Assembly (NCBI GenBank): GCA_965205525.1
Contig: OZ242171.1
Coordinates: 518,289 to 582,288, forward strand
Source: Gammaproteobacteria bacterium
Lineage (GTDB): Bacteria > Pseudomonadota > Gammaproteobacteria > JABABF01
Direction: 5' to 3'
DNA: 64,000 bases
The notes under the pieces were generated by a model that had not been told where the DNA came from, made no database searches, and saw only the letters and a list, made by a program, of their open reading frames with translations. The translations under genes and the position numbers were made by a program. This document shows positions 13,996-17,647 of this stretch, one piece after another (positions within the stretch are counted from its first letter, which is position 1; every line of letters starts with the position of its first letter).

Positions 13996-15213
13996 CTAGG
14001 GTCTGCAGAGATCTGCCGTGAAGCTCGTGCGCCCGCCCCCCACTGCAGGGGTAAATTCCAGGGTGGCTTCAAGACCGGAAATAGAGAGGGATGTGTAGGT
14101 GCCGCTGCTGTCTTGGGGATCCGGCATGAGTGCCAGTTGAGAGAGATCGTCTCCCCCCGTGTATTCCCCGCTAATGGGGGTGCCGGTGGGGTCGGTATCG
14201 GCATCTACCCGCACGCCGCTTATGCTGCCGTCCGCATGGAAATTCATTTCCAGCAGCACACTGCCGGTGGCGGTGCTCACCATGCGCCATCGCAGATCTG
14301 TCAGCGGAGTATCGCTGAGCCGCTGCACATCCATCGGGCCAGTTGGCGAAGTTCTGGCAATGCTCCTGTAGTCCCGGGCAAATCGGCCGGTGAAGTCCCG
14401 GCGGGTTCCCGCTTCCGTGTCAATTTCTGCAAAGCTGAGGTCCGTGTCCGCCGGCAGCGGGGTACTGCGGAATGCACCGCGAATGTCCAGCCCCGCATCG
14501 CTCAATCCGTATATAGAATTCACCGGCAGGGAGGCGGGCAGGGCGAAGGTGCCCGAGTCATCGCTGTCGCTGTAGCGGTATACGCCCGCTGCATGACAGC
14601 GCTGGGCCGCTTGCAGTCTCGCGATAGCATCCGTCAGGGCTGGGTAGTCCTCTCCCGCGGCGGGGAGATTTGGAAAATCTGCCAGGAGACCGGTGCCTGC
14701 AACATAGGGGCCGCCGCTTATCGACTGCACGGCATCGTGCATGATAATGCGGCTATGGAGTTCATTGGCAATAACAATCCGGTCCGTGTCTGAATTGCTG
14801 TGCAGACCTTGCAGGAAGGCGGCGACCTGTTGCACGATTGCTACGTTACCGGAGAGATCGGCCGGGGTGAGGGTCAGTCCCTCTGTGCTGGCTTCGGCCC
14901 TGGTGATAGCAGTGCCCCCCAGCTCCAGGCGATCATCGCTGTCTGCGGCATCGTCGCCGAGAAAGAAGACAACCCTGCTCGCCCTGTCCCTGGGGTAGCG
15001 GAAGCTGCCCAGCGGATCGGTGCGTCCGCTCCTTGAAACACTGTTGCTCTCCAGCACCTCGTAGAAGACACCCTGTACCGGGTCGTCGCTGAAGCGCCCT
15101 GCATAGAAATTTTCTTCCGAGTTTTCATCCTCATCATCGCTGTCTTCGTGACAGCCTGCGCTGAAGCCGAGTGCCAGGAACAGCAGGAGAAAATGCAGAT
15201 AGCGAATTGTCAT
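13996..15213 (-). CDS. lipoprotein of unknown function with acidic post-lipobox linker (candidate exported/T2SS-associated protein)
   Basis: ATG at 15213; signal peptide MTIRYLHFLLLFLALGFSAGC (lipobox LGFSAG|C) followed by HEDSDDEDENSEE; 405 aa, host-like GC; no recognisable domain. Confidence 0.6.
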   Translation of the reverse strand: MTIRYLHFLLLFLALGFSAGCHEDSDDEDENSEENFYAGRFSDDPVQGVFYEVLESNSVSRSGRTDPLGSFRYPRDRASRVVFFLGDDAADSDDRLELGGTAITRAEASTEGLTLTPADLSGNVAIVQQVAAFLQGLHSNSDTDRIVIANELHSRIIMHDAVQSISGGPYVAGTGLLADFPNLPAAGEDYPALTDAIARLQAAQRCHAAGVYRYSDSDDSGTFALPASLPVNSIYGLSDAGLDIRGAFRSTPLPADTDLSFAEIDTEAGTRRDFTGRFARDYRSIARTSPTGPMDVQRLSDTPLTDLRWRMVSTATGSVLLEMNFHADGSISGVRVDADTDPTGTPISGEYTGGDDLSQLALMPDPQDSSGTYTSLSISGLEATLEFTPAVGGGRTSFTADLCRP

Positions 15214-15312
15214 GGGGAGCTGGGGCTCTGTTTTGCTGGGGAAACAGGTGAATTGTAGCACAGTGGACAATGCTTTTGAATGTCTTGTAAGAATCATTAT
15301 GTATTGTCAATC

Positions 15313-15376
15313 TGTACTTTTGCGGCATGATCCTTTGCTAAATTGTCTTGACGGCTCTTCTCATCTTTGAGGATTA
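15313..15376. repeat. degenerate copy of the glycosyltransferase gene's stop-9nt-ATG junction and first ~55 nt (direct repeat partner of 16611-16684)
   Basis: Read on the - strand, the GT gene's TAA stop is followed by tcctcaaagATGagaagagccgtcaagacaatttag, then ATGccgcaaaagtacagattgaca. This is ~85% identical to the GT gene's own start ttcctgaagATGaaaagagcagtcaaggcagtcaagaaaatttggcgaaggatcataccgcaaaagtatagattgata. Confidence 0.75.
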
Positions 15377-16672
15377 ATAGAAAAAGGGATCAGTAGAAAA
15401 TCCCGTCTTTGCTGGTTGGAAATCATCATCATTGGTCATGATATAGTCAATATCATAACCGTCTGCTTTGCCTTCTGCATAGTGAATCATGTAATTTTTT
15501 TTATTTAGGGTTTTCATGACGTTATGTTTTTTGATAAGAATTCCATTGAGTTTTTTATTACGAAAATAAGAAAGCGATAGACTATTATTAAACCAGTTGC
15601 CAGGTCCTGCAATGATGTAATTACAATCAGCTAAAAGATGTATATTCTTTACAGACGACATGGTCTCTTGTTTTATTAATTCCGGATGACGTATAAGCAT
15701 ATCAGCATTCAGAAGATCATAACGTTTTTCATTATCATCATAAATAAAGTCTATTTCTGAATTTTTAGGTAAGAGCTGAATAGCCTCTTCTGAATCGGTC
15801 GTTACAAATACCGTCTTGATGCCAGTTTGATGGACTACTTGCTTAACTATTTCAAGGTACTTTTGAATAGGAATAAAGCGATGCTTTTCAAAATCTTTAT
15901 TTAATCCCCCTTGTCGTATGTGAACACCAATAATTGGATTTTTGAACCCTATTTCCTTCCTTTTCTTTTCAATATGAGCCTTATATTCTTGTTTTAGTTT
16001 CAAGAAAGAGCCTAAAATAAGGCCTCTAGTGTAGATTGGGTGTAACGGTAAAGATAACGGGTGAACAGAATTTAAAAGTTCAGGCAATAACGGCGAATTG
16101 AAAGTTTGAAAAAAGCCAGAGTAAACGACTTTTCCTTTTTGGGGCAAGCCATTGAATTTAATTGCTTTCTTGTTATATTTTGGGTGTATATCTTCCAAAG
16201 AGTGAATGGATATAGGTTCGTAGCAAAAATCATAAACCAATTGACTACTATCATACAATAATGCCCGATTATACAAATAACTATAGGCGAGCCCTTTACT
16301 AAGAGGATCTAAAACAGCGGCTCCAAAACCATAATGGGAGTTCCCAGCATTAACTATAAGGAATTTTGATTCTTGGAAAGGAATTCCAAATTGCAGTAGC
16401 TGAAGTTTGTTAAGTATCATGGAATCCAAGGATTTGAATGTATCCGGTGGATAATTATGTGGCGATATAGTTTTAGATAAAATAAGCCCTGTTTTCTTTG
16501 CATATAATTTGACTCTAAGATTTAAAATGAGATCTTGGAGGTCTTGGATAAATTCCCTCACTCTGCCAGCCAAAAGAGGAGGGAGGACTCTGATTCTATA
16601 TAGTATCAATCTATACTTTTGCGGTATGATCCTTCGCCAAATTTTCTTGACTGCCTTGACTGCTCTTTTCAT
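15374..16672 (-). CDS. fucosyltransferase-superfamily glycosyltransferase (NodZ/FUT8 GT23-like or GT11-like), horizontally acquired
   Basis: 432 aa ORF at ~33-37% GC in a ~62% GC genome, rich in K/N/I/Y. Motifs IGVHIRQGG (compare NodZ IGVHVRHGNGE and GT11 HIRRGDY), VFVTTDS (NodZ VFLCTDS) and LLADCNYIIAGPGNWF (NodZ LLGRCDTVIRFPPTSAF). Starts 9 nt after the gspN stop, same strand. Confidence 0.6.
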   Translation of the reverse strand: MKRAVKAVKKIWRRIIPQKYRLILYRIRVLPPLLAGRVREFIQDLQDLILNLRVKLYAKKTGLILSKTISPHNYPPDTFKSLDSMILNKLQLLQFGIPFQESKFLIVNAGNSHYGFGAAVLDPLSKGLAYSYLYNRALLYDSSQLVYDFCYEPISIHSLEDIHPKYNKKAIKFNGLPQKGKVVYSGFFQTFNSPLLPELLNSVHPLSLPLHPIYTRGLILGSFLKLKQEYKAHIEKKRKEIGFKNPIIGVHIRQGGLNKDFEKHRFIPIQKYLEIVKQVVHQTGIKTVFVTTDSEEAIQLLPKNSEIDFIYDDNEKRYDLLNADMLIRHPELIKQETMSSVKNIHLLADCNYIIAGPGNWFNNSLSLSYFRNKKLNGILIKKHNVMKTLNKKNYMIHYAEGKADGYDIDYIMTNDDDFQPAKTGFSTDPFFY

Positions 16673-16684
16673 CTTCAGGAATTA
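16611..16684. repeat. direct repeat partner: gspN stop, 9-nt spacer and 5' end of the glycosyltransferase gene
   Basis: See 15313-15376. This copy carries an internal 9-bp duplication (cttgactgccttgactgc, AVKAVK). Confidence 0.75.
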
Positions 16685-17647
16685 TTCCTTTTGTAGATTA
16701 TCGTTGGGCGAGGGCTCGGGCGGTACAGCGACAGCAGATGAGGGAGCTCCTGTCCCCGATTCTGTCGCCGCTTCCCCGGAGGCTGTTTCGGGTGTTTGTG
16801 ACTCCGCTGCCTGAGATTTGTATGCTTCCGGCGGCTTGAGGCTCTGCGGTCCCGCACTGCCGGGGGGGATTGCCAGGCTCAAGAGAAAGGCGCCGTCCGG
16901 CTTCGGCGCGCCGGCGATATCCCGCAGGCGTTGTCGCAGCAGCGCCCCCGCATCCTGCCGGGGCACAATCCGTCCGCTGGCTCCGGCCGCACCGCCGCCG
17001 TACCAGAGCATCCCTTGCACTTCCAGGGGGCCGCCGAAATCCTCTAGGGCGGCCAGCAGATAGCCCGCTTCATCCCGGGCCAAATCTGCGGCCAGGTTGC
17101 CGAAGGCGAGTGAGCCCCCCCGGATATTCAGCTGGCTGTTCTGCCAGCCGAGGGAGGCATCCACCTCCCGGATCTCTCCGGACCAGCGAAGATGCCTTAT
17201 CCGCAGACTGATCTCCCCCTCGGCATTCATGCCCTTGGGCAGCCAGGGACTGAGGAGAGGAGCCTTGCCGAGCACCAGCGCATCCCGGAGCAGGATGCTG
17301 CCATTAATCCCCGCAATTGCTGTGCCAGAAATTTCCCTGTCCGCCGCCGTCGCTTCCACTTGCAGCTGCACCCGGGCGAGCAGGAGGGCGGCTGGAGACA
17401 GCCGCCATTGCAAGCGTCCCAGGGACAGCCAGTTGCCCCGCACTTGCACCGCTGCCAGCTCTGCGTTTCCTTGCCACAGGGTGCCGCTCACACCTTCCAG
17501 GTGAAGGATGGGTATCTGCTGGCTGAGCCAGCCCGCCGCCAGCCGCGCCGGGGCGGTGACGGCCAGGGACAGGATAAAAATGCCGGCGCCGAGAGAAACT
17601 ATCAGCGCAGGAGAGGGGCGGAGCAGGGCGGCGAGATTAAGCTGCAT
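16682..17647 (-). CDS. gspN: type II secretion system protein N
   Basis: Last gene of the gsp operon, N-terminal TM segment, GspN-like core; unusual ~75-aa Pro/Ser/Ala/Glu-rich C-terminal tail. Confidence 0.75.
   Translation of the reverse strand: MQLNLAALLRPSPALIVSLGAGIFILSLAVTAPARLAAGWLSQQIPILHLEGVSGTLWQGNAELAAVQVRGNWLSLGRLQWRLSPAALLLARVQLQVEATAADREISGTAIAGINGSILLRDALVLGKAPLLSPWLPKGMNAEGEISLRIRHLRWSGEIREVDASLGWQNSQLNIRGGSLAFGNLAADLARDEAGYLLAALEDFGGPLEVQGMLWYGGGAAGASGRIVPRQDAGALLRQRLRDIAGAPKPDGAFLLSLAIPPGSAGPQSLKPPEAYKSQAAESQTPETASGEAATESGTGAPSSAVAVPPEPSPNDNLQKE

Follow-up and report, generated by a model that had tools for sequence, protein, structure and literature searches.

Direct repeats around a FUT8/NodZ-like fucosyltransferase gene behind gspN: probable gene boundaries of a horizontally acquired array slice

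Known systems and the locus

Various described systems resemble the locus reported here. It lies in a stretch of 64,000 nt from a Gammaproteobacteria bacterium (assembly GCA_965205525.1, contig OZ242171.1, positions 518,289 to 582,288), hereafter the window, to which all coordinates refer unless another contig is named. In this window, a single gene encoding a putative glycosyltransferase (GT) of the FUT8/NodZ type is bracketed by two copies, A and B, of a short direct repeat and follows gspN, the gene that ends an operon of the type II secretion system (T2SS). Repeats bracketing a foreign gene can be simply the consecutive boundaries of a tandem array of the donor. This is very probably the case here, the insert being a slice of a fucosyltransferase gene array acquired by horizontal transfer.

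Tandem arrays of paralogues with truncated terminal copies, due to unequal crossing-over or deletion, are comparable by their periodic boundary, by a copy number and an order that vary between strains and by the stubs found at their edges (as in the contigs L001 and L016, see below). The window differs from them since it holds only 1.08 units, since its relatives do not carry the family at this place and since the array context was seen only in other phyla. Small horizontally acquired islets, integrated via illegitimate recombination, share with the locus a sharp break in guanine-cytosine (GC) content, the absence from the syntenic sites of relatives, a closest homologue in another phylum and the lack of mobility genes. 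However, the insert of the window is unusually small (one gene), is located inside the last gene of an operon and gives GspN a chimeric C-terminus. Integron gene cassettes are also made of single-gene units with conserved boundaries in variable arrays, whereas here an integrase and an attC-like imperfect inverted repeat are both lacking, the boundary consists of coding sequence and the ends of the insert are out of register. As for the product, it is related to the FUT8/NodZ alpha-1,6-fucosyltransferases (CAZy GT23) by Pfam FUT8_N_cat and NodZ matches, by the profile of a FUT8 segment and by its predicted fold. It differs from them by its low identity (about 16-19%), by the lack of an SH3 domain, by a basic N-terminal head specific to its clade and by a Gly at the place of a consensus Asp.

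The two repeat copies and the array boundaries

It should be specified that all the genes and repeat features described below are read on the minus strand. A previous reading of this DNA from its sequence only (the sequence-only reading) had proposed that the unit made of a stop codon, 9 nt, an ATG and the 5' coding end of the GT gene is duplicated at both ends of a low-GC cassette. Both copies were found at the proposed places. Copy A (16597..16684) runs from the stop of the preceding open reading frame (ORF) across the junction into the head, as we call the initial 25 codons of the intact GT gene: the gspN stop TAA (16684-16682) is followed by the 9 nt ttcctgaag (junction A, 16673..16681) and by the ATG at 16672. 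In the same way, copy B begins with the TAA of the GT gene (15376-15374), followed by the 9 nt tcctcaaag (junction B, 15365..15373) and by an ATG at 15364, and goes on to 15298. The two junctions were read directly; junction A belongs to a class common to the array boundaries of L016 and L001.

This repeat is real and far above chance. When minus-strand 16684..16597 and 15376..15298 are aligned with a single 9-nt gap, 65 of the 79 positions are identical (82%); the ungapped match covers 58 nt at 84% with a start-to-start spacing of 1299 nt (repeat family D1). Aligned locally with the rest of the window, copy B reaches a best score of 31, while its shuffled copies give 11.4 +/- 1.0 (maximum 15), so that the identity is well above that expected from shuffling. 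Furthermore, a degenerate pattern of the 27-nt core has exactly two matches in the window, copies A and B, and none in 100 shuffles. The low GC content of the cassette was also confirmed (0.35 versus 0.62 in the rest of the window), and no other such island is present in the 64 kb.

The part of copy B that follows the junction is a 67-nt remnant of a head (15298..15364), collinear with L016 11315-11381, and is a pseudogene fragment of the next array member. Its peptide, MRRAVKTI*QRIMPQKYRLTIH, resembles GT heads over residues 1-22 only. It had already been noticed that this copy ends as MRRAVKTI*, which is due to an in-frame TAG (15340-15338) in place of the TGG of a conserved Trp. This dead fragment forms the right edge of the demonstrably foreign segment. 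The sequence-only reading was also correct about copy A, which carries a 9-bp tandem duplication (gcagtcaag twice, 16646..16663, units 16663-16655 and 16654-16646) encoding AVKAVK and corresponding to the 9-nt gap between A and B. This duplication is private to the intact GT of the window, being seen in 0/24 homologues. Concerning a possible concerted evolution of the two heads of the window, two sites are concerted and one is orthologous, the number of sites being small. The longest run identical between A and B is 11 nt; for this reason, we regard RecA-mediated excision between them as unlikely.

The closest arrays are carried by the Dehalococcoidia contigs L001 and L016 (ENA sample ERZ25069326), in which the boundary motif was located by regular expression. 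At every gene junction of these contigs, the end of a coding sequence (often ...DDNLQKE*) is separated by about 9 nt from the ATG with which the head MKRxVKKIWxRxxPQKYRL begins. Six such units are found in L001 and L016 together and two in the window, with pairwise identities of 0.77-0.96. The boundary sequence recurs once per gene because only a short junction separates each gene from the conserved first ~22 codons of the next paralogue. The head and boundary are among the best-conserved stretches between paralogues (0.80-0.87), the next 60 columns being the least conserved (0.26-0.28).

The collinearity with L016 covers both copies of the repeat. Window 16702..15298 and L016 9971..11381 form one alignment block, with 88.3% identity over 1426 nt. 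In L016, this block starts in the tail of a 3' stub located upstream of P0026, crosses a junction, P0026 itself and the next junction, and extends 67 nt into the following gene. P0026 is the orthologue of the GT of the window (84% amino acid identity), and the following gene is an intact ORF of 400 aa (MKRVIKKIWQRIIPQKYRLAIHT...GDDNLQKE*). Copies A and B share 0.87 and 0.84 identity with their positional counterparts in L016, and 0.82 with each other. Besides the insertion scar discussed below, the sequence-only reading had considered that the locus could be what remains of paralogous GT genes arranged in tandem after deletion of the second copy. This alternative is essentially right, because L016 holds a collinear array with an intact next gene. 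Nevertheless, the array was seen only in other organisms, and a remnant located upstream, the tail of another array copy, had been overlooked.

This tail (16682..16706), fused in frame to gspN, is the left edge of the foreign segment and the place where the drop in GC content begins. In blastn comparisons with L001, homology reaches window 16706. The tail matches those that precede the GT starts in L016 and L001 (e.g., GATGATAATCTACAAAAGGAATAA), and the motif caacgataatctacaa is common to it and to the tail preceding P0004. The last seven codons of gspN and its stop (16705-16682, NDNLQKE*) are foreign; the second gene of the L016 array ends with GDDNLQKE*. The demonstrably foreign segment, to which both copies of the repeat belong, extends over 16706..15298, i.e., 1409 bp or about 1.08 array units.

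The native part of gspN (16707..17647), which encodes the T2SS protein N (Pfam T2SSN, E 6.6e-27), allows a comparison with three relatives, L013-L015, whose GspN share 65-72% identity with that of the window. In these relatives, the operon gspD-E-F-G-H-I-J-K-L-M-N is directly followed by the orthologue of the gene found downstream of the insert in the window, by a chorismate synthase gene and by a GTP cyclohydrolase gene. The syntenic sites of L013, L014 and L015 are empty: the GT gene is absent between gspN and the downstream gene, and nothing similar to a head or a junction is found at these sites beyond chance words of 10-14 nt. The DNA homology with the relatives stops at window 16827, inside gspN, and resumes at 15221. 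GspN reaches 369-463 aa in the relatives, with a tandem-repeat tail rich in P/A/S/T, versus 321 aa without this tail in the window, because the foreign segment cuts the repeat off. The alignments thus indicate that the foreign segment replaced the distal tail of gspN and probably also a part of the spacer between gspN and the downstream gene. In the relatives, the GspN tail consists of 3-6 tandem copies of a P/A/S/T-rich unit of about 20 aa (PASQPAAAASPGTTTPKSPV), and this copy number varies (383 versus 463 aa); the regions concerned are window 16682-16830, L013 8830-9152 and L014 8830-9392.

On the right side, the head remnant is separated from native DNA by 76 nt (15222..15297), across which the GC content rises from 0.31 to 0.56. 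Comparison of these 76 nt with all the array loci and paralogues (blastn-short) gave only chance words, and their similarity to the native spacers of L013 and L014 is not significant (381/500 and 45/500 shuffles, respectively, reach the observed score). According to these comparisons, the right joint is located somewhere in 15222-15298, i.e., within 0-76 nt; the left breakpoint is resolved to a few nt.

These data suggest the following scenario. Copies A and B very probably correspond to two successive gene boundaries of an array in which FUT8/NodZ-like fucosyltransferase genes are arranged in tandem. A slice of such an array, of about 1.41 kb, would have been acquired horizontally by a gammaproteobacterium-like genome of 62% GC. 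This slice starts with the final 25 nt of one copy, continues through a junction, a whole gene and another junction, and stops 67 nt into the next copy. The integration of the slice at the 3' end of the T2SS operon could be due to non-homologous (illegitimate) recombination; there it would have taken the place of the distal part of gspN and probably of a part of the spacer, gspN now ending in seven foreign codons. The GT gene would have become the new last gene of the operon, 9 nt behind gspN, and the truncated head of the next copy is dead. The left end of the foreign segment precedes an ATG by 34 nt and its right end lies 67 nt beyond another one, so that the two ends occupy different positions of the repeat unit. 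Since these ends are out of register, they fit a random cut of an array and do not fit a target-site duplication or a site-specific event. No recombinase, transposase, tRNA or flanking inverted repeat was found near the insert, and no ORF of the size of a transposase or integrase is present between gspN and the downstream gene. We infer the direction and the vehicle of the transfer, the mechanism of the joining and the co-transcription with the gsp genes. About the latter, the GT gene is on the same strand as gspN, 9 nt behind it, at the end of an operon of 12 genes, and its expression by read-through from the gsp operon is plausible.

The composition of the cassette matches that of the Dehalococcoidia GT copies (GC 0.34). 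Among the differences specific to the window, 48 are AT-to-GC and 34 are GC-to-AT (p = 0.15), which is a trend only and not a significant amelioration of GC content. This lack of amelioration suggests a short residence in the present genome.

Several points weigh against the acquisition of an array slice as described above. No donor closer than 88% nucleotide identity (dS 0.16-0.19) was found; therefore, the real source would be unsampled, and the direction of the transfer is deduced from GC content alone. Furthermore, GT copies are about 10 GC points below their own flanks in every host examined, and Dehalococcoidia therefore need not be the ultimate source. The nearest relatives share only 72% identity in GspN, so that they do not provide a pre-insertion allele of the lineage itself. 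Lastly, the 76 nt at 15222-15297 match no array locus, paralogue or native spacer significantly.

The mechanism would be an ordinary one. Its setting is of modest interest, as a rare FUT8-like gene would have passed from one phylum to another and become attached to a T2SS operon. It would be a clean case, with resolved breakpoints, of the passage of a single FUT8-type (eukaryote-like) gene between an array of the Dehalococcoidia type and a gammaproteobacterium-like genome of high GC content. The insert landed in the last gene of the T2SS operon and remodelled the C-terminus of GspN.

Other explanations of the repeat

An array of several GT copies could also have been present at this place in the past, with deletions leaving one copy, a tail stub and a head stub. 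Such a decay in situ, which we regard as unlikely, differs from the acquisition of a slice only by the original length of the insert. It is true that the arrays are unstable, as three Dehalococcoidia contigs carrying the same locus in one sample differ in copy number and order. L001 carries an internally deleted copy whose head stub and that of the window have ends no more than about 4 nt apart; L016 has a 3' stub upstream of its first gene, and the head stub of the window has gained a stop codon. However, the window does not require such a history, since both stubs are found in the same arrangement in L016 and could have come with the slice. Moreover, a tblastn search reveals no further GT fragment in the 64 kb, the absence of GC amelioration argues for a short residence, and nothing shows that more than the present slice was ever there. 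The splicing by the assembly of a low-GC read segment from a co-occurring organism into a high-GC contig is extremely improbable. The closest homologues do come from metagenome assemblies (ERZ25069326), but the insert shares no more than 88% identity with the Dehalococcoidia copies co-assembled there and hence is not their sequence. In addition, these 1.4 kb have native DNA on both sides in a conserved synteny, are fused in frame to gspN and display a private AVK duplication and the TAG of the stub.

Other explanations attribute a role in the integration to the repeat itself. The sequence-only reading had put forward an insertion scar, the repeat being a target duplication or resulting from recombination at a short homologous junction, as could be expected from a direct repeat that brackets a compositionally foreign gene. 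Almost no probability remains for this proposal: the unoccupied sites of L013-L015 are devoid of such a sequence, and both copies are array-derived and included in the single 88%-identical alignment with L016. In the latter, the same structure exists with an intact second gene, that of 400 aa, behind the orthologue of the GT. The copies are 82% and not about 100% identical, each being as close to its counterpart in L016 as to the other copy of the window, and the segment ends at different positions of the repeat unit. Moreover, there are neither mobile-element genes between gspN and the downstream gene nor inverted repeats at the edges. It is very improbable that the module made of tail, junction and head is a recombination site that moves single GT units in the manner of integrons. 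The identity of the boundary of about 100 bp between paralogues (0.80-0.87 versus 0.26-0.28 in the next 60 columns), the variation of array content and order between strains and the occurrence of a family that crosses phyla and is low-GC in every host would suit such a site. Nevertheless, no integrase or recombinase gene is found beside the arrays or the insert, the neighbours of the arrays being housekeeping and sugar-metabolism genes. The conserved stretch is coding and conserved as a peptide, and the ends of the insert are out of register (-34 versus +67 relative to the ATG). Neither a hairpin nor an inverted-repeat signature was detected, and the family is absent from the viral contigs scanned. 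It is likewise improbable that the ~100-bp module, beyond providing a common translation start and N-terminal peptide, serves as a handle for the exchange of single fucosyltransferase units among arrays, across phyla, in one host-associated community. The insert would then be a unit captured behind the T2SS operon, and this would perhaps link T2SS expression with the fucosylation of a target that is secreted or exposed at the surface.

The fucosyltransferase family and the neighbouring genes

The intact GT gene (15374..16672, 34% GC) encodes a protein of 432 aa whose assignment to the FUT8/NodZ-like (GT23-like) fucosyltransferases relies on Pfam, a sequence profile and the predicted fold. The Pfam match to FUT8_N_cat (PF19745) is marginal (28.5 bits for a cut-off of 27.6), and the NodZ match is below the cut-off. 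A profile of 16 family members matches the FUT8 chains in the PDB (E 1.5e-11), over a region in which GFKnPiiGVHiRqGD is aligned to GFKHPVIGVHVRRTD of FUT8. The AlphaFold model has a mean pLDDT of 65.5, with values above 85 in the C-terminal Rossmann half. With this model, Foldseek retrieves FUT8 (E 1e-11), then NodZ (E 2e-7, TMt 0.50-0.55), followed by plant FUT1 and POFUTs; the global TM score is only about 0.45, and the support from the fold is moderate. The sequence profile and the predicted fold thus point to a GT23-like fucosyltransferase, the predicted activity being that of the GT23 type, i.e., the alpha-1,6 transfer of fucose from GDP-fucose to a GlcNAc acceptor.

The Arg of motif I, equivalent to R365 of FUT8, is invariant in the family (R253 in the GT of the window). 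The GT of the window reads HIRQGG at 15905-15925 (residues ~251-257) and the Dehalococcoidia proteins P0002 and P0026 read HIRQGK, the family consensus being HIRQGD, aligned to HVRRTD of FUT8. Thus, the equivalent of FUT8 D368 is a Gly in the window, a Lys in P0002/P0026 and an Asp in the consensus. R365 and D368 are, as we assume, essential in FUT8. The Asp equivalent is lost in the subclade made of the GT of the window, P0002 and P0026, and the activity or specificity of these putative enzymes may differ.

P0002 and P0026 share 83-84% amino acid and 88% nucleotide identity with the GT of the window, and the sampled Dehalococcoidia copies are not the immediate donor. Comparison with these orthologues gives a ratio of nonsynonymous to synonymous substitution rates (dN/dS) of 0.41-0.47 for a dS of 0.16-0.19; therefore, the intact GT gene is not decaying freely. 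A hairpin followed by a T-run (GGGATTTTCTACTGATCCC TTTTTCTATT, window 15386-15404) overlaps the last GT codons and is terminator-like in a simple scan; its counterpart is weaker in L016 and L001.

This FUT8-like family is rare and found so far only in a handful of lineages of metagenome-assembled genomes (MAGs). Among 1.84 billion protein cluster representatives, 27 are retrieved at E<=1e-30 and 586 at E<=1e-3. The 25 homologues found sit on few contigs, several per contig. Among the GTDB genomes, the family occurs in two Dehalococcoidia MAGs, one Ca. Poriferihabitaceae, one Ca. Oxydemutatoraceae and two unclassified Gammaproteobacteria MAGs. Analysis by tblastn reveals 2-6 adjacent copies or pieces at most loci: six in L004, four in L005, three in both L006 and L009, three copies and a stub in L016, and three copies and an internally deleted one in L001. 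The copies from a gammaproteobacterium of 62% GC (L009, L010) are only 34-40% identical to the GT of the window. A scan of viral contigs with the family alignment yields no relatives and gives no support for a phage vehicle. Likewise, neither an exact scan for the head motif nor an alignment-based scan detects relatives in the JGI metagenomes. Some of the names of the host MAGs (Ca. Poriferihabitaceae) point to sponge hosts, and a literature search on sponge symbionts and fucosyltransferase returned nothing relevant. We conjecture that genes that are rare, nearly always in tandem and AT-richer than their host would suit a fast-evolving surface-glycan function in symbiosis.

One Dehalococcoidia locus is represented by three contigs, L001, L002/L003 and L016 (ENA ERZ25069326 / OZ242209), which differ in the number, order and deletions of their GT copies. 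It is bounded by thrS, citrate synthase and methyltransferase genes on one side and by PfkB on the other. The three versions of the array are P0004-P0002-deleted copy, P0009-fragment-P0003 and stub-P0026-P0005-P0006. These differences reflect strain-level dynamics of the array within one sample. Low-GC genes of the Glyco_transf_11 (alpha-1,2-fucosyltransferase) family are located a few kb from the FUT8-like arrays (L001 7576-8631, L002 15698-17818 and L016 18190-19245). Their location suggests that the arrays belong to a larger AT-rich island for fucosylation, beside the PfkB and PALP genes. In the array of Ca. Poriferihabitaceae (L006 6464-11125), three copies are spaced by about 1769 nt and all belong to one 90%-identity cluster that has 15 members across few genomes. 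This even spacing and this single cluster therefore indicate a very recent tandem amplification.

Beyond the insert, the native downstream gene (13996..15213) encodes a lipoprotein-like product (MTIRYLHFLLLFLALGFSAGC...) and is the orthologue of the gene of 405-406 aa that follows gspN in L013-L015. Its true start is the ATG at 15213, native homology resuming 8 nt before it (15221). The mechanical ORF prediction, 13996-15297, uses instead an ATG that coincides with the end of the head remnant, which makes the gene 28 codons too long. Just upstream of this gene, within the 76 nt that follow the head remnant, lies a promoter-like sequence, TTCAAA-17-(TG)-TACAAT (15280..15252); the relatives carry TATAAT or TACAAT at a comparable place. 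The last ~45 nt of the downstream gene (window 13996-14040) recur as a small repeated element, once or twice and at 84-86% identity, in the spacer located beyond this gene in the relatives (L013 10610-10653; L014 10979-11023 and 11111-11155).

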